Origin: Parcubacteria group bacterium
Lineage (GTDB): Bacteria; Patescibacteriota; Minisyncoccia; Phycocordibacterales; UBA2100
Direction: 5' to 3'
DNA: 50,196 nucleotides
NCBI GenBank assembly: GCA_943358385.1
Contig: CALRGX010000008.1
Location: 1 to 50,196 of the forward strand
Positions 2,656 to 8,752 of this stretch are shown piece after piece. Numbering within the stretch: position 1 is the stretch's first letter; each line of letters opens with the position of its first letter. Under the pieces are notes generated by a model. That model did no database searches, was not told the origin of the DNA, and was given only the letters and a program-made list of their open reading frames with translations. A program made the translations under genes and the position numbers.

Positions 2656-2736
2656 GCCGGAGTGGCGTAATGGTAGCCGCGCACGACTCAAAATCGTGTC
2701 TCGTAAGGGGTGAGGGTTCAAGTCCCTCCTCCGGCA
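2656..2736 (+). tRNA. tRNA-Leu(CAA)
   Basis: Acceptor GCCGGAG/CTCCGGC+A, anticodon arm CACGA-CTCAAAA-TCGTG, long variable arm, T-arm GAGGG-TTCAAGT-CCCTC. CCA not encoded. Confidence 0.95.
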
Positions 2737-2908
2737 CAGAAAACAGTTGAGCCGAGAGCGTGCCTCTCGGCGATTACTGTTTTTGCCGGGGCGGGACTTG
2801 AAAGGCGGAGCCGGTATACAAGACGAGCGCAGCGAGTGCTTGTCGGCGAGCCAGGGCAGGAACCACTTTCCCGAGCGCGGAGCATGCGAGGGATTAGTGA
2901 GTTGCGCC
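2720..2908 (+). mobile_element. Putative non-autonomous structured insertion at tRNA-Leu T-loop (copy 1)
   Basis: 16-bp direct repeat CCTCCTCCGGCACAGA at 2725-2740 and 2912-2927. Antisense copy of the tRNA 3' end at 2784-2802. Two-hairpin core 2803-2908. Confidence 0.7.
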
Positions 2909-3011
2909 AAGCCTCCTCCGGCACAGAGCCAAGCGATAGGGCGGAGAGAAAAGTGGCTGGTCTCTGTAAACGGGTGGAAAACTGGGCACGGGTGCATGAT
3001 ATACTCGCGCC

Positions 3012-4399: not shown

Positions 4400-5915
4400 A
4401 CTGTTGCCCCAATGCTGAGCGAATGTGCTTTTTCGCCATGGTGGTCTTCGCAATGTCGAGCCATTTCTTGCTCGGCTTTGCGCTCTCTTTTGTGGTGATT
4501 TCCACGATGTCACCGTTGCGCAGTGCGGTATCCAAGGACACCAACTTACCGTTTACTTTTGCCCCCGCAATATGGTTGCCAATATCTGAGTGCACCGCAT
4601 ACGCAAAATCGATAGGGGTTGCCATCAACGGCAAATCGATAGGGTCACCCTTGGGGGTAAAGACGAATATACGGTGCTCAAAGAAATCGTCTTTAATATT
4701 CTCCAGGTACTCGCTTGAATCAGAATCGTCTTCTTTAAATGCGGCAAGCTGTTGCACCCATTGGGGTACATTTTCGTTTCGCTTGGGGGTGGCTTTCGTT
4801 ATTTGGCCCGCTCGGCGTGGGAGGAATTGGCGAACCCATTCAGCACCCGAGCCACGGCCACCACTTAAGTAGCCGCTCTCCTCTTTGTATGAAAAGTGCG
4901 ATGCAATACCAAACTGTGCCTCTTTGTGCATCGCCTCGGTGCGCACCTGAATCTCAAGTGTGCCGCCATCACCCGTGTACACGGTTGTGTGAATACTTTG
5001 GTAGCCATTTGGTTTTGGGTTTGCAATGTAGTCTTTGATTTTGCCAGGCACAGGGCGCCAGTGTGCGTGAATGATGCCCAGAGTGTTGTAGCAGTCAGCC
5101 ATGCTGGGAACGATGATGCGCAAGGCGAGGATGTCGTGAATCTTGGTGATATCCCAATCTTTGCGCTCCAGTTTCTTGTAGAGACTGTAGGCACCCTTCT
5201 TGCGCGCTTCGGTGTGGAATTGGCGTATGCCCGCGGTAGCCATCTCTTTTTTCAGTGTGCGGTCGGTTTTTTCAAGACGATGCTCACTTTCTGTGTGGCG
5301 TTCCTTTAAATGTTTCTTTACTCGCTCGTATTCTGCAGGGAAGGCAAAAGGGAATACGGCATCTTCCAGCTCTGTTTTTAAAACACTCATACCCAAGCGA
5401 TCGGCAATGGGTGCATATATTTCGAGTGTCTCCATGGCGATGCGCTTTCGCTTATGTGGAGGCACGTGTTCAAGGGTTTGCGCATTGTGTCGACGGTCCA
5501 TCAATTTAATGATGAGTACACGGATATCTTGTGCCGTTGCGGCAAATAATTTGCGCAAACTTTCAGTGTGCCGCTCGAGCCCGCGGTAGCGCAAGGCACC
5601 AAGTTTGGTCACTCCATCAACAAGGCCGAGGATTTCATTACTAAATTCCTTTTCAATCGTTTCAGGAAGTACCCCCACATCTTCGATACTGTCGTGTAAA
5701 AGACCTGCAGCAATCGTGGGCGCATCCATACCCATATGTGCCAACGAGTGGCCCACTTCGGCAAGGTGCAGGAAATAAGGCTCCCCCGAGTAGCGTGTTT
5801 GGGCTTTGTGAGCGTCTCTGGCGAACGTATATGCCTTTTCAACGAGGGCAACGGATGCTGGCTCCTTCGCCTGCATTTCTTTGATAATACTCTCGAGAGA
5901 TTTGACGGATGCCAT
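4398..5915 (-). CDS. relA: RelA/SpoT family (p)ppGpp synthetase/hydrolase (HD + synthetase + TGS, no ACT)
   Basis: RYSGEPY, LLHDSIED, DRRHN, DILALRII, KPNGYQSIHT, EIQVRT, FVFTPKG, DFAYAVHSDIG. Start may be 5915 or 5927. Confidence 0.93.
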   Translation of the reverse strand: MASVKSLESIIKEMQAKEPASVALVEKAYTFARDAHKAQTRYSGEPYFLHLAEVGHSLAHMGMDAPTIAAGLLHDSIEDVGVLPETIEKEFSNEILGLVDGVTKLGALRYRGLERHTESLRKLFAATAQDIRVLIIKLMDRRHNAQTLEHVPPHKRKRIAMETLEIYAPIADRLGMSVLKTELEDAVFPFAFPAEYERVKKHLKERHTESEHRLEKTDRTLKKEMATAGIRQFHTEARKKGAYSLYKKLERKDWDITKIHDILALRIIVPSMADCYNTLGIIHAHWRPVPGKIKDYIANPKPNGYQSIHTTVYTGDGGTLEIQVRTEAMHKEAQFGIASHFSYKEESGYLSGGRGSGAEWVRQFLPRRAGQITKATPKRNENVPQWVQQLAAFKEDDSDSSEYLENIKDDFFEHRIFVFTPKGDPIDLPLMATPIDFAYAVHSDIGNHIAGAKVNGKLVSLDTALRNGDIVEITTKESAKPSKKWLDIAKTTMAKKHIRSALGQQ

Positions 5916-5963
5916 AAGAATATACATACTACGCCCCAGACTGTTTTAGGCAAGGAGGAAAGC

Positions 5964-6227
5964 ATGGAAACCCCATCGAGTCTCTCGATCCAAGATATGA
6001 ATGAAAGCGGTGCCAAGGTGGTCGCACTCATTGCACGGCTGCCCACACCCCCGCACTTTCGAACACAGCGACCATCGCCCGTCGGCATGACGGTCCGCGA
6101 GTATCTGGATCTGCTGAGCGCTGGCGACAAGGCCACGCACGCCTGCGGGTGCGGATGGAAAGGCACTGCCTCAGGAGACGCCGGCGCCTGTCCAGCTTGC
6201 GGCGGGGTAGTCACCCCTCAAACGTAG
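5964..6227 (+). CDS. Small zinc-ribbon hypothetical protein (87 aa)
   Basis: AAGGAGG SD before ATG 5964. C-terminal CGCGW...CPACGG. Palindrome downstream. Confidence 0.65.
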   Translation: METPSSLSIQDMNESGAKVVALIARLPTPPHFRTQRPSPVGMTVREYLDLLSAGDKATHACGCGWKGTASGDAGACPACGGVVTPQT

Positions 6228-6250
6228 CGCTGTCAGAACAGCACCGAACC

Positions 6251-6276
6251 ACAACCACCTGCATGCAGGTGGTTGT
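6251..6276. terminator. Perfect 26-bp palindrome between convergent genes
   Basis: ACAACCACCTGCATGCAGGTGGTTGT. Confidence 0.6.
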
Positions 6277-6379
6277 TACTTTTTGGAGGCTGCTTTTGTA
6301 TTTTTTGTGGCGTCTTCCGTCTTATGCGGATTGTGGTTTGGGCAAGTTTTGTTGCTGCAACGCTCGGGAATTGTTTTTG
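6276..6379 (-). repeat. Displaced second copy of the topA 3' end
   Basis: Encodes KTIPERCSNKTCPNHNPHKTEDATKNTKAASKK*. 34 bp (6346-6379) identical to 6548-6581, then synonymous differences only through ...HKTE. Confidence 0.9.
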
Positions 6380-6580
6380 GTCACCGATAATTTTCTCGTC
6401 GCCACTCGAAAATTTCCGCGACCCCGACTCGCGATTTCGTGTGCTCACGAAATATCGCTCCGTCTCACAAAAACGAGCTGTGCAAGAAGCGAAGGCTTCT
6501 GGCTGCCAGATTACTTTTCAGTCTTATGCGGATTATGATTCGGACAGGTTTTGTTGCTGCAACGCTCGGGAATTGTTTTT
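6379..6580 (-). mobile_element. Putative non-autonomous structured insertion in topA 3' end (copy 2, 202 bp)
   Basis: Direct repeats 202 bp apart. Antisense junction copy at 6466-6474. Core AGACGGAGC...GCGAGTCGGGGTC...GACC matches the architecture of copy 1. Confidence 0.75.
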
Positions 6581-8691
6581 GTGCCATCCATCATGAGGGC
6601 GCTACAGATCTTGCAGATGTTGCCGGTAGGGCGGGCCTTAATGGCTAGTTTGCAGTCTGGGTAGTTCGAGCAAGAAAAGAAAGGGCCGAATCGTCCACGC
6701 CGTTCTACCATCTCTCCATTCTCTCGTTTGGCAGCAATACAATCTGGGCATTTGACGCCGGTGGAGTTGAGGAGTGCATCTTTCTTTATATATTTACACT
6801 TAGGGTAGCGCGAACAGGCGATAAATTTTCCAAAACGTCCTTCGCGCTCGGTCAGCTGGCCCCCATGCTTTTCAAAACACTCGGGACACGTTTCCCCGAT
6901 TTCTCGCGGCGGCTCGATGATCGAACCGTCTTCTTTGCGTGCGCCATGGCATTCGGGGAATTTTTTGCAGCTCATAAACTTTCCGTTGCGCGAAAGTTTA
7001 AATTCCATGGGGCCAGCACACAGTGGGCAGGGAAATTCTGCCGGGACATCACCAAGAGAGGTAATTTTCGCGATTTTCTTCTTGCTCTTCACTGCCTTCG
7101 TGAAGGGACCATAGAAATCTTTGAGTGTCTTCACGTACTCACGCTTGCCGTCAGCTATTTCATCCAGCTCATCTTCCATTTCCGCAGTAAAGGAATCACT
7201 GATGTAGTCTTTGAAATGTTCTTCAATAAAGCTCGATACCACGTCGCCGGTATCGGTGGGGATGAGGGTGCGGCCTTCCTTCACTACGTAGCCACGAGTT
7301 ACCAGTGTATTGATGATGCTGGCGTAGGTGGAAGGGCGCCCAATACCGCGCTTCTCCAGCTCCTTCACCAGGCCCGCCTCACTATATCTGCCTGGCGGCT
7401 GCGTTTGCTTGTGCTCGCTCTCGATACTCATCAGTGAAAGCTTTTCTCCCGCTGTCACTTTCGGCAATTCCACGTCTTCGCCGCGTGCTTCGGGATCTGC
7501 CAGAAGCCATCCTTCAAACACCACGCGTGATCCGTTGGCAGTAAATGCAGGAATGCCCGCTCCTTCAGCAACAGCAGTAATAGTGGTGCGCATTACCCGT
7601 GCGTCGGCCATTTGGCTCGCGAGTGCGCGGGCGCGAATGAGGCGATAGAGTTTCTTCTGTTCTTCGTTGCTGCCGGCAGAAAGTTTGCGTGGGTCGGTGG
7701 GGCGAATGGCTTCGTGTGCTTCTTGTGCTGATTTACTTTTGGTCTTGTATTCCTTTGCTTCTGCAAAGGTTGGACCGAACTCTTTTGTCACCTGGGAAAC
7801 CAAGGCTCCTTGTGCTTCCTTGGCTAGATTGGTTGAGTCGGTACGCATGTATGAAATGTGTCCTGCTTCGTACAGTTTTTGCGCGACCTGCATCGTGCGT
7901 GACGGTGAAAAACCAAATCGCGTGGAGGCGGTCTGCTGCAGTGTAGAGGTAGTAAACGGCGCACGTGTGGCGCGCTTCTGTTCCTTTTCTTCTACCGACG
8001 CAACGCCCCATGCACCTTTGCGCCCTGCGGCAAGGATGCGCTCTGCTTCTGCTTCACTACGTGGCTCTTCGACGCAGCTAGCTACAAAGAGTGCGTTTGC
8101 CTTTGTTTTAAACTGAGCGGCAAGCGTCCAGAAGTCTTCGGGGATGAATGCGCGAATTTCGCGCTCACGCTCCATGATGATGCGCAGAGCAGGGGATTGC
8201 ACACGGCCAGCAGAAAGCCCGTAGCGTACTTTTTGCCAGATAAGGCCGGAGAGGTCATATCCAAAAAGGCGATCCAGCACGCGGCGTGCTTCTTGTGCTT
8301 CACGCAGCTGTGTGTCTACTGGTCGCGGGTGCTTCAATGCCTCGTTTACTGCTGATTCAGTGATTTCATGGAAGACAATGCGTTGCGGCTTTTTAAGTTT
8401 AAGCGCCTGCGCCAAATGCCACGCTATCGCCTCGCCTTCACGGTCGGGGTCGGTTGCCAAAAGGACAGTATCTGCTTTCTTTGCGAGGGCACTGAGCTCG
8501 CTGATGATTTTTTCCTTGCCTTTTACGACGACATAATTCGGTACGAAACCTTTTTCAATATCAATAGCATTCTTACTGCTTTTTGGGATATCGCGAATAT
8601 GCCCCACGGATGCGCGGACGGTGTACCCCTTGCCGAGGTATTTTTCGATGGTTTTCGCTTTTGAGGGCGACTCTACAATTACGAGATGCAT
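6511..8691 (-). CDS. topA: DNA topoisomerase I (type IA) with C-terminal zinc ribbons
   Basis: LVIVESPSKAKT, ATDPDREGEAI, SAGRVQS, ISYMRTDS (catalytic Tyr), QEAHEAIRPT, GIGRPSTY, zf-C4 repeats. Confidence 0.98.
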   Translation of the reverse strand: MHLVIVESPSKAKTIEKYLGKGYTVRASVGHIRDIPKSSKNAIDIEKGFVPNYVVVKGKEKIISELSALAKKADTVLLATDPDREGEAIAWHLAQALKLKKPQRIVFHEITESAVNEALKHPRPVDTQLREAQEARRVLDRLFGYDLSGLIWQKVRYGLSAGRVQSPALRIIMEREREIRAFIPEDFWTLAAQFKTKANALFVASCVEEPRSEAEAERILAAGRKGAWGVASVEEKEQKRATRAPFTTSTLQQTASTRFGFSPSRTMQVAQKLYEAGHISYMRTDSTNLAKEAQGALVSQVTKEFGPTFAEAKEYKTKSKSAQEAHEAIRPTDPRKLSAGSNEEQKKLYRLIRARALASQMADARVMRTTITAVAEGAGIPAFTANGSRVVFEGWLLADPEARGEDVELPKVTAGEKLSLMSIESEHKQTQPPGRYSEAGLVKELEKRGIGRPSTYASIINTLVTRGYVVKEGRTLIPTDTGDVVSSFIEEHFKDYISDSFTAEMEDELDEIADGKREYVKTLKDFYGPFTKAVKSKKKIAKITSLGDVPAEFPCPLCAGPMEFKLSRNGKFMSCKKFPECHGARKEDGSIIEPPREIGETCPECFEKHGGQLTEREGRFGKFIACSRYPKCKYIKKDALLNSTGVKCPDCIAAKRENGEMVERRGRFGPFFSCSNYPDCKLAIKARPTGNICKICSALMMDGTKTIPERCSNKTCPNHNPHKTEK

Positions 8692-8752
8692 ACAATAGAT
8701 TGAAGGGTACACGCAAGGTGCGCGGGCGTACAGTACACGCTATCCCCATAAC

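Follow-up and report, generated by a model that had tools for sequence, protein, structure and literature searches.

The window analysed here, a stretch of 50,196 nucleotides from a Parcubacteria group bacterium (contig CALRGX010000008.1), holds a topA gene whose 3' end is present twice, and the question is what the 202 bp between the two ends represent. The product is topoisomerase I, with Toprim and Topoisom_bac domains and three Top1 zinc ribbon stretches (Pfam). On the protein, the repeat corresponds to the tail and the preceding half of the last zinc ribbon. The direct repeat is 65 nt long (6581..6517 inside topA and 6379..6315 downstream; spacing 202; 91% identity). The filler between the copies is 137 nt, and the insert of 202 bp in total has no space for a gene. 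The evidence below indicates that the 202 bp probably arose when a miniature non-coding element inserted among the final codons of topA; the element is a member of an order-wide family that is itself probably mobile. The parts of the locus, and of a second family member in the window, are listed in Table 1.

Table 1. Features of the topA 3' region and of a second family member (positions in the window).
Feature	Position	Strand	Basis
topA coding sequence, 733 aa, with present stop	6511..8712	-	ORF list; Pfam Toprim, Topoisom_bac, Zn_ribbon_Top1 x3
Copy 1, proximal 34 nt, identical to 6346-6379	6548..6581	-	Sequence comparison
Copy 1, distal: six synonymous differences, then K-stop; replacement end now used	6511..6547	-	Sequence; tails of relatives support association with the element
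Spacer hairpin: 7-bp stem, loop CTTC; followed by T-run 6469-6473	6483..6501	-	Sequence and fold
Antisense segment, partly complementary to topA at the repeat start: 9-nt exact CACAAAAAC plus GAGC	6466..6482	-	
Conserved structured core: P1 encloses hairpin P2; GGG linker; long hairpin P3 ending GTGAC	6380..6465	-	Covariance model, covariation
Copy 2 of the topA 3' end, displaced native end	6315..6379	-	
ORF-like continuation of copy 2, DATKNTKAASKK-stop	6276..6314	-	
Perfect 13+13 palindrome, bidirectional terminator shared by topA and the convergent ORF 5736-6227	6251..6276	.	Repeat search and terminator scan
Second family member, 3' of tRNA-Leu(caa) 2656-2737	2738..2925	+	21.7 bits, E 6e-4
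Second member, parts: spacer with GAG-hairpin-CGA module; antisense segment 2784-2804		+	
Second member, parts: core 2805-2907 (another subfamily); displaced sense copy 2908-2925		+	

Beyond the identical proximal stretch, the two copies differ at six sites (positions 32, 35, 38, 41, 44 and 59 of the 63-nt in-frame stretch; C/T, T/C, G/A, T/C, T/C and T/G). All six are third codon positions and synonymous, with the shared reading KTIPERCSNKTCPNHNPHKTE; the initial annotation had described six such differences after a 34-bp identity, and the repeat alignment confirms them. Copy 1 then ends with K-stop (TAA 6513..6511). Copy 2 continues as DATKNTKAASKK-stop (TAA 6278..6276), and the final A of this stop is base 1 of the palindrome, so that the downstream copy does read on to a stop touching the terminator, as had been claimed. 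Six random changes would all be synonymous by chance with P = 4e-5, and with P = 0.0025 if one copy was free to drift and the other constrained. Divergence of the same coding type is found in relatives, where 12 pairs of in-gene and downstream copies give a pooled pS of 0.63 and pN of 0.076, and where one species (G029) has Arg CGT/AGA and Ser TCA/AGC swaps between its topA copies. The suggestion that both copies have been under selection at the protein level is thus upheld, here and in related loci.

A simple tandem duplication of the gene's end with later drift would also leave a direct repeat of short period, and some pairs are indeed nearly identical (in locus L139 the topA copies are identical across 19 codons). 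Against it stand the nature of the sequence between the copies, a dispersed multi-copy element, the rarity of 6/6 synonymous differences even with one copy constrained, and a pooled pN/pS of 0.12 against about 0.5 expected, which leave this origin very improbable. The best reading is that copy 1 (...KTEK-stop) is the end in use by TopA, and copy 2 the native end left behind. The proximal 34 identical nucleotides are possibly a crossover or gene-conversion tract.

The layout was compared with independent assemblies (Logan contigs, 4 runs from 4 studies). In three runs a unitig of 228-231 nt starts in the stretch of copy 2 that is shared with copy 1, crosses the insert and the diverged part of copy 1, and reaches the shared stretch of copy 1, and in run X8 one contig spans copy 1 (6466-6696); uncovered parts in runs X5, X6 and X8 were given no weight. 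Contigs built from 31-letter words cannot join the copies across a 34-nt repeat, so the layout on one molecule rests on the assembly of the window and on the layouts of other species. No junction of an excised, circular, deleted or empty form appears in these contigs, which for the same reason could not resolve one. A strain-chimeric mis-assembly, or a 202-bp circle sharing 34 nt with the chromosome, would take advantage of exactly this, as the identical stretch is longer than the words from which the public contigs were built and forms a loop in the graph that contigs alone leave unresolved. Either is extremely improbable: an equal layout is found in 20 other species from unrelated assembly projects, the loop unitig recurs in three studies, and in run X1 the depth of the insert unitig (32.9) is about that of the flanking contigs (35.9 and 37.9), with the shared 34-nt stretch at double depth (68.8).

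The greater part of the filler is a structured core, matched over about 97 nt (6377-6473) by a covariance model with a score of 107.4 bits. This model (R1), built from 26 cores, has 24 matches at E<=1 in the source genome (0.91 Mb, 91.8% complete), and at E<=1e-4 it has matches in 27 of the 41 genomes of the order, with 0-28 per genome. The hosts belong to an order of Patescibacteria, in records named Kaiserbacteria, Paceibacterota or Parcubacteria. Compensatory changes are seen at 25 of the 29 pairs of the core fold, and 94.2% of the cells are paired, versus 72.3% in shuffles (0/500 reach the observed value) and 30-45% with slid partners. The conserved G-U pairs are compatible with the gene-sense strand only. 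The P3 hairpin of the topA core recurs exactly, over 38 nt, behind other tRNA genes in five metagenome contigs. The insert had initially been viewed as an integrative element that brings a replacement 3' end; it does behave in this way, and its 137-nt filler proves to be a member of a large structured family. No match at E<=1 was obtained in Rfam 15 for the region 5900-7000 on either strand, and two exact-pattern scans of viral contigs, which miss diverged copies, gave no stretches. No account of such an element was found in the full texts of the literature searched or in passages of two 2026 preprints on non-coding elements, and the family is apparently undescribed.

The family is specialised for the 3' ends of tRNA and tmRNA genes, and topA is the protein gene that recurs among its targets. 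Of the 24 matches in the source genome, 19 have a tRNA or tmRNA gene on the same strand no more than 400 nt away, on their 5' side. Tandem arrays are formed by three units after tRNA-Val and by two units each after tRNA-Leu, tRNA-Tyr and tRNA-His; a nested copy lies behind tmRNA, and several subfamilies are present at a single tRNA. Along the target gene, the typical order is the sense 3' end, a hairpin or terminator, an antisense copy of this end, the two-domain core of about 90 nt, and a displaced sense copy. The sense, antisense and displaced-sense copies can be read directly, and 14 of 23 copies show at least one relation among them that is exact over 11 nt or more. The antisense segment is genuinely reverse-complementary and not a copied 5' strand of the tRNA (tRNA-Val, tRNA-His). 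It is separated from the sense end by a spacer of 30-60 nt, and at tRNA-Val its match is perfect (19/19). All three antisense segments of the tRNA-Val array are fully complementary to the working tRNA, and the displaced sense copies there are altered or shortened. A regular-expression survey gave a mean of 15.5 matched nucleotides of 24 for the antisense segment versus 11.7 for the displaced copy, from only 11 elements, too few to lean on. At locus L161 the tRNA-end copies are identical (22/22), and the antisense segment matches neither of them.

At topA, 20 of 80 related species have the core directly after the stop codon, in every case on the topA strand. Hairpins homologous to that of the spacer (loops CTGC, CTAC or CTTC) occupy the equivalent place in the other topA elements, and in the window the hairpin with the adjoining T-run may form the end of the topA transcript. 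On the TopA tree, the presence of the element needs at least 15 changes, 14 of which are forced by well-supported branches. Close relatives differ in its presence. For example, the congener G001 has an empty topA site, with a palindromic terminator after the stop that is homologous to the one after copy 2; this agrees with the initial proposal that the downstream copy is the one in ancestral surroundings. The comparison of TopA C-termini that had been recommended is informative in the clade with KLEG tails, in which element-free species have long tails resembling the downstream copies, and the in-gene tails are short and mutually alike. In two further cases (G013 and L132) the pattern of the window is reversed, with identity in the distal part of the copies and differences in the proximal part.

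The in-gene copy is intact at all 20 loci, and the downstream copy is ORF-like at 12, decayed or partial at 6 and unrecognisable at 2. The downstream copy is hence better seen as a relic than as a maintained second end. This bears on a further point, implied by the initial annotation, that the two ends are used alternately. A programmed switch, in which reversible removal of the 202 bp gives TopA either a short or a long Lys-rich tail, could draw on the perfect 34-nt direct repeat, which would permit precise deletion, and on the frame of copy 2, which is still open up to the terminator; with decay or loss at 8 of 20 related loci, alternating use is not supported and a switch of this kind is highly improbable. 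The locus could also be the scar of a large integrative element, a prophage or island that inserted into topA with a replacement end and has since lost all but 202 bp. Such elements leave direct repeats of gene 3' ends with coding-type divergence, and the source genome has four large serine recombinase genes. The same small size and the same core are nevertheless found at 20 topA loci and, in 27 genomes, in about 250 matches (listed or counted) downstream of tRNA genes, and no recombinase gene adjoins the copies. A single 90-nt folded core would not be the common stopping point of independent deletions; this recurrence argues against a scar, which is regarded as quite improbable.

Alternatively, the core may be mainly a cellular functional RNA, that is, a 3' trailer which ends, processes or stabilises the transcripts of tRNA, tmRNA and topA genes, or which targets the 3' ends of tRNAs by means of its antisense segment, the duplicated ends being part of the fold and not insertion scars. 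The strong covariation and the G-U pairs that suit the gene-sense strand alone favour such a role, as do the orientation of all copies with the upstream gene, the perfect complementarity of the tRNA-Val antisense segments to the working tRNA, and a predicted fold (z -2.87) in which the antisense segment pairs with copy 2 and closes the core. The distribution speaks against it: it is patchy, with 14 of the 41 genomes, including one of the three of genus g5, having no match at E<=1e-4, and occupied topA sites turn up in scattered places across the TopA tree. Insertion is indicated by the tandem arrays, the nesting and the presence of more than one subfamily at a single tRNA, and the downstream topA copies decay. 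As the main account of the core, a functional RNA is unlikely; it is at the same time compatible with mobility, and the two are not exclusive. Returning to the insertion of a miniature element, we infer past or present mobility of the element, with the in-gene end moving along with it. This end may be carried by the element or may have arisen as a long target duplication, and the patterns at L139, L161, G013 and L132 bear on the choice.

Profile searches of the 41 genomes revealed no recombinase that tracks the element. Tyrosine recombinases number 1-3 in 39 of the 41 genomes, with or without elements, and are mostly single; the only one in the source genome is on another contig. IS200-like Y1 transposases are present in 22 of the 41 genomes and large serine recombinases in 21. 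Both are lacking in some element-rich genomes, for example G029 (16 copies), and occur in some without elements, for example G034. A Y1 gene is found in 12 of 18 genomes with at least five copies and in 7 of 14 genomes with none; four genomes with 9-17 copies (G001, G029, G017 and G015) have no Y1 gene, and the source genome has IS200-like Y1 genes as well as its four genes for large serine recombinases. Reverse transcriptase (PF00078), IS110 (PF01548) and TnpB gave no match in the source genome at its 91.8% completeness. A search for Y2 enzymes found no match in any control genome and carries no weight.

Integrative islands and prophages enter the 3' ends of genes (tRNA, tmRNA) and bring a replacement end; e14 and phage 21 do so in icd. 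The element resembles them in its target, which is the 3' part of a tRNA, tmRNA or conserved protein gene, and in the incoming copy that completes the gene. Further likenesses are the old end displaced as a direct repeat, the allele-like differences between copies, the start of the tRNA copies in the T-loop, and the partial direct repeats of the target 3' end that flank the insert (65 nt at topA; also at tRNA sites and other topA loci). It differs in size (only about 140-200 bp), in having no open reading frame and no integrase in it or adjoining it, and in its extra antisense copy of the target end, conserved folded core and tandem arrays of mini-units. REP/REPIN elements (mobilised by RAYT) and MITEs are likewise small, non-coding, hairpin-rich, multi-copy and often situated behind genes, whereas the present element is site-specific for gene 3' ends and duplicates 17-65 nt of its target. 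Unlike a MITE, it has no terminal inverted repeats, the only inverted repeat given by the repeat search in 6000-7000 being the terminator palindrome, and its duplication is 65 nt versus 2-10 bp; unlike the REP/REPIN-RAYT system, its counts do not go with Y1 genes.

Group II introns use EBS-IBS pairing and IS110 uses a bridge RNA, both being mobile elements directed by guide RNA. The element shares with them a segment complementary to its own target beside a conserved folded RNA-like core. In contrast to them, there is neither a reverse transcriptase nor an IS110 (DEDD) recombinase among the matches in the source genome, the complementary segment, which copies the flank in inverted form, is no longer than about 20 nt, and the L161 segment has no target match. 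Several other candidates were discarded. Template and variable repeats of a DGR do not fit, as the differences are not at template adenines and the source genome has no match to PF00078. Retron a1/a2 repeats and split or permuted tRNA genes were considered and dropped, as was a hammerhead-like core, for which the likeness was by eye only. An intron in the T-loop was rejected because the upstream gene copy is complete and splicing is unneeded.

A formal parallel is offered by the integration of CTX-phi-type phages, in which folded single-stranded DNA is recombined by host Xer recombinases, and by integron attC sites (PMC3442271, PMC4246890, PMC4792948). The likeness is one of form: two inverted copies of the attachment sequence lie close by and can pair within a single strand to give a duplex site, the fold is specific to one strand, the element brings no recombinase of its own, and tandem arrays occur; about one Xer-like recombinase per genome is found here. 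The element differs from the systems described there in targeting tRNA, tmRNA and topA ends and not dif or attI, and in having no phage genes or cassette ORFs.

By analogy, and as the least certain part of this account, the sense and antisense copies would pair within a single strand, and the resulting duplex would imitate the target site. A host enzyme might then recombine the folded duplex with the gene, as for the CTX phage or attC sites, and homologous recombination between species could spread the occupied alleles. In its widest form this would be a new class of non-coding mobile element without a recombinase of its own, in which sense and antisense copies fold, as DNA or as co-transcribed RNA, into a target mimic beside the core. 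The unit would then be spliced into tRNA, tmRNA or topA genes by a host housekeeping enzyme, and the gene entered would be mended at the same time. As a whole, this proposal is tentative and somewhat unlikely.

The genomes of these bacteria are smaller than 1 Mb, yet the source genome carries at least 24 copies of a folded element of 100-200 nt behind tRNA genes, the tmRNA gene and an essential topoisomerase gene. For annotation, this means that displaced copies mimic alternative gene ends or tRNA fragments, and that the cores make up an unannotated RNA-like family. If mobile, the element would be a very small gene-mending insertion element, and would show how a parasite that brings no recognisable enzyme can persist within the essential genes of a minimal genome. 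The combination of antisense segment and core hints at recognition of the site by folding or pairing of nucleic acids. Should the new-class proposal be true, the antisense copy would allow the element to be re-targeted through templated copying of a new flanking sequence.

The 3′ end of topA is present twice in the window, as a 65-nt direct repeat with a spacing of 202 nt, copy 1 lying within the gene and copy 2 downstream (table). The two copies share an identical leading stretch of 34 nt and differ thereafter by six mismatches, all silent and all at third codon positions, as the initial annotation had described; its main reading of the two topA ends is upheld in its main points. The probability that six random changes in the repeat are all silent is 4e-5, or 0.0025 if one copy is free and the other constrained. 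Copy 1 terminates with Lys and the stop, and copy 2 continues via DATKNTKAASKK to its stop, TAA, the final A of which also opens a perfect palindrome. An ORF convergent with topA, with a Cys-rich C-terminus, is syntenic in the congener G001 and had no match in a Pfam search.

Coordinates of the features (window positions unless a contig, C, or locus, L, is named; all in the window's own genome, G000, except the last row)
Feature	Position	Strand	Remarks
topA	8712..6511	minus	Pfam: Toprim, Topoisom_bac, Top1 zinc ribbon (three stretches)
Direct repeat, copy 1	6581..6517		within topA
topA target segment	6581-6560		contains CAATTCCCG
Antisense segment of topA element	6482..6466		
Stretch matched in relatives	6466..6376		
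Direct repeat, copy 2	6379..6315		downstream of topA
Perfect palindrome	6251-6276		3′ of copy 2
ORF convergent with topA	5736-6227	plus	163 aa
Second, weaker family member	2656-2925		other core subfamily; includes tRNA-Leu(caa), element 3′ of tRNA
tmRNA locus	C1:119150-119600 (L056)		
Large serine recombinase gene	C1:138409-138849		
Large serine recombinase gene	C6:397-834		
Large serine recombinase gene	C3:34788-35228		
Large serine recombinase gene	C9:8929-9390		
IS200-like Y1 (RAYT-like) gene	L074:1285-1950 (C2)		intact, 221 aa
IS200-like Y1 (RAYT-like) gene	L073:1504-1698 (C14)		truncated, 64 aa
HNH endonuclease gene	L003:267-758 (C11)		163 aa
tRNA-Leu(gag) region of G001	G001:C21:6700-7060 (L158)		

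The assembly of this region was checked in Logan contigs of four sequencing runs from four studies. A 228-231-nt unitig, found in three runs, leads from the identical stretch of copy 2 through the insert, then the divergent portion of copy 1, to the identical stretch of copy 1, and a single contig of run X8 covers copy 1 (6466-6696). Depth in run X1 was 68.8 for the shared 34 nt, 32.9 for the insert unitig, and 35.9 and 37.9 for the two flanking contigs. Unitigs and depths are consistent with two copies of the topA end per genome; the contigs are no proof of one molecule across both copies, because the repeat exceeds the 31-letter words. The contigs also showed no joints, which words of this length would not have resolved in any case.

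The 137 nt separating the copies have a 71% BLAST match elsewhere in G000 (914 kb, 19 contigs, 91.8% complete), within a tRNA cluster of a different contig, and the stretch following the antisense segment has many matches in 40 relatives, some at 78-96% identity. An alignment of 26 copies gave a consensus fold (RNAalifold) of 29 pairs, with compensatory changes in 25 of them. Paired cells amounted to 94.2%, vs. 72.3% after shuffling (0/500 as high) and 30-45% with partners slid, and the covariation score was 0.612 vs. 0.208. In this core a short helix P1 surrounds a hairpin P2 (loop approximately AGCA); a linker, GGG, leads to P3, a long hairpin whose apex is conserved and which is closed by GTGAC, the final bases of the element. 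Two conserved G-U pairs would become C-A mismatches on the opposite strand, and the fold is therefore that of the gene-sense strand. In the predicted fold of the topA element, the core is closed by base-pairing between the antisense segment and the beginning of the repeat. The element region matched no Rfam family.

A covariance model of the approximately 97-nt core (R1) has 24 matches at E ≤ 1 in G000, 19 of them following a tRNA or tmRNA gene on the same strand at a distance of no more than 400 nt; the others are the topA copy and four without a called tRNA nearby. Of 41 genomes from the order, 27 have matches at E ≤ 1e-4 (0 to 28 per genome), these counts being lower bounds, since at least one subfamily seen by eye escapes R1, whose E-values are rough. 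Presence is patchy within genera (g5, 2/3; g6, 1/3; g3, 1/4; g10, 0/3), and in an even sample of 150 genomes from elsewhere in the phylum, R1 matched 6 at E ≤ 1e-6. Kaiserbacteria, Paceibacterota, Parcubacteria and further Patescibacteria MAGs appear in the titles of related topA loci. Two scans of viral contigs, restricted to exact patterns, found zero copies.

At tRNA genes the order, with the target gene read 5′ to 3′, is the tRNA up to its T-loop, a sense 3′ part that completes the gene, a spacer, an antisense copy of the 3′ part finishing with the T-loop complement, the core, and a displaced second sense copy beginning within the T-loop. The antisense copy at tRNA-Val, complementary at 19/19 positions, is a true reverse complement (GCGCGAT vs. 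GCGCGGT in the tRNA 5′ strand, and the T-loop as complement), and the same holds for tRNA-His, whose T-loop is non-palindromic. When the antisense-sense, displaced-sense and antisense-displaced relations were scored, 14 of 23 copies in G000 had at least one exact over at least 11 nt, the maximum in shuffled controls being 11. Tandem units follow tRNA-Val (three) and tRNA-Leu, -Tyr and -His (two each). The tRNA-Leu(caa) element has a GAG-hairpin-CGA spacer, an antisense copy with two mismatches and a displaced sense copy. At the tmRNA the P3 hairpin is split by a 73-nt short family variant, a nested insertion; this variant occurs at four further places in G000.

The spacer is either a GAG-hairpin-CGA module or a terminator-like hairpin, its loop often CTGC. 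Spacer hairpins (L032, L035, L036, L037, L039, L043, L046 and the topA spacers) have variable, covarying stems and very often this loop. The GAG...CGA internal loop recurs in some spacers and at the P3 apex, which hints that one protein might bind both. The 9-mer CAATTCCCG of the topA target is also found in the T-arm of the G000 tmRNA (3′ end, C1), and an element targeting tmRNA or tRNA may initially have used the topA site as a pseudo-site. At tRNA-Leu(gag), G001 has a core subfamily differing from that of G000, so elements have turned over there since the two genomes split; the same locus has a perfect 64-nt duplication, terminator included.

The topA gene is a recurrent target. The core is present at 20 of 80 topA loci in species genomes, always on the topA strand and approximately 15-180 nt past the stop. 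All 20 loci have an intact in-gene copy. The displaced copy keeps its frame to the stop in 12, is truncated, frameshifted, internally deleted or partly read in six (L146, L087, L143, L140, L125, L131) and is beyond recognition in two (L082, L101). Over the leading 19 codons of the window and 11 loci (L116, with an altered second copy missed by the pattern, was left out), pS was 0.63 and pN 0.076, pooled over loci that are related and thus not independent trials. Silent and replacement changes numbered 5/0 in the window, 4/0 in L124, 8/0 in L089 and 7/1 in L102, and codons of the G029 copies are swapped between CGT and AGA and between TCA and AGC. The pN/pS ratio is far under the approximately 0.5 expected from simple drift of the downstream copy, in agreement with the proposal that both copies were under protein-level selection. 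In L134 the remnant of a second topA end lies past the stop, and L084 has a spacer-like hairpin with a T-run; both lack a core match and look like partly deleted elements.

Which end is native is indicated by element-free relatives. In G001 the insert is absent, the topA stop precedes a homologue of the palindrome behind copy 2, and three of four informative silent sites match copy 2. Within the KLEG-tail clade, the tails of element-free L104 and L106 are long and Lys-rich, resembling the downstream copies of L102, L108 and L089, and the in-gene tails of these three are short and mutually alike. The native end is therefore the downstream one, the in-gene end being associated with the element, which bears out the earlier proposal that the downstream copy is ancestral. 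On a TopA tree (FastTree; 81 rows, 21 with element; C-terminal columns, approximately 22 of 734, kept), presence changes at least 15 times, 14 changes being forced by well-supported branches; shuffled labels gave a mean of 18.7, with 8/500 shuffles as low. Presence differs even between close sequences (L097 vs. L101; L078 and L086 vs. L091). Because loss via the direct repeat is easy, the tree shows turnover, not direction.

The identical stretch of the topA copies is proximal in the window and L091, and distal in G013 and L132; the L139 copies are identical across all 19 codons. In the metagenome contig L161 the tRNA-end copies are identical at 22/22 positions, the core ends two bases early and the antisense segment fails to match the tRNA. 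These patterns do not fit a simple integrase picture; as alternatives to an end carried in by the element, they could come from gene conversion between copies, or from insertion with a long duplication of the target and later replacement of the allele.

Tyrosine recombinases number 1-3 in 39 of 41 genomes, with one in G000 (C1). The large serine recombinases of G000 have frames of 505-625 aa, two of the four at contig ends, and no core adjoins either Y1 gene of G000. Neither family tracks the element across the 41 genomes: G029 has 16 cores without Y1 or large serine recombinase, and G034 has zero cores, yet four genes for Y1 and five for serine recombinases. Searches of G000 for RT, IS110 and TnpB families gave no match. 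The HNH gene, within a tRNA cluster that also has a core, may encode a free-standing homing endonuclease.

The closest known kinds are integrative elements that target tRNA, tmRNA and gene ends and bring replacement ends, such as e14 and phage 21 in icd; integrase sites in tRNA genes include a T-loop sublocation. The target logic is common to both, but an encoded integrase defines those elements and is absent here, whereas the antisense copy and folded core are additional. A MITE is ruled out by the absence of terminal inverted repeats and by the 65-nt duplication, a REP/RAYT system by the lack of co-occurrence with Y1 genes across the 41 genomes, and a DGR by the nature of the copy differences and the lack of an RT match in G000.

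The preferred mechanism, a tentative one against which the balance of probability still lies, is folded single-strand integration resembling that of CTX phage and integron attC sites (PMC3442271, PMC4246890 and PMC4792948). Sense and antisense copies of a single strand would fold into a duplex imitating the target, a host recombinase would swap one strand within the T-loop, and replication would then fix the product; the order so predicted (sense copy, spacer, antisense copy, core, native end) is that observed. Such a mechanism, its single-stranded stage being hypothetical, would agree with the tandem arrays and the strand specificity of the fold, and with an element that lacks a recombinase of its own in genomes with one Xer-like gene each. 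Arguments against it are that Xer acts on dif and that the targets include many different tRNAs. The core may have a role at the RNA level. As a second layer, occupied alleles have likely spread between species by homologous recombination, with the left and right arms provided by the conserved gene and the displaced copy, respectively; this would account for the allele-like divergence of the copies.

No description of such an element was found in the literature searched, which included two recent preprints. The larger result is a family of miniature structured elements that sit at the 3′ ends of genes and are apparently undescribed. The element is a dispersed, folded, strand-specific, non-coding unit with sense, antisense and displaced sense copies of the gene end, and it probably is or was mobile, keeping the invaded gene whole by supplying its end.
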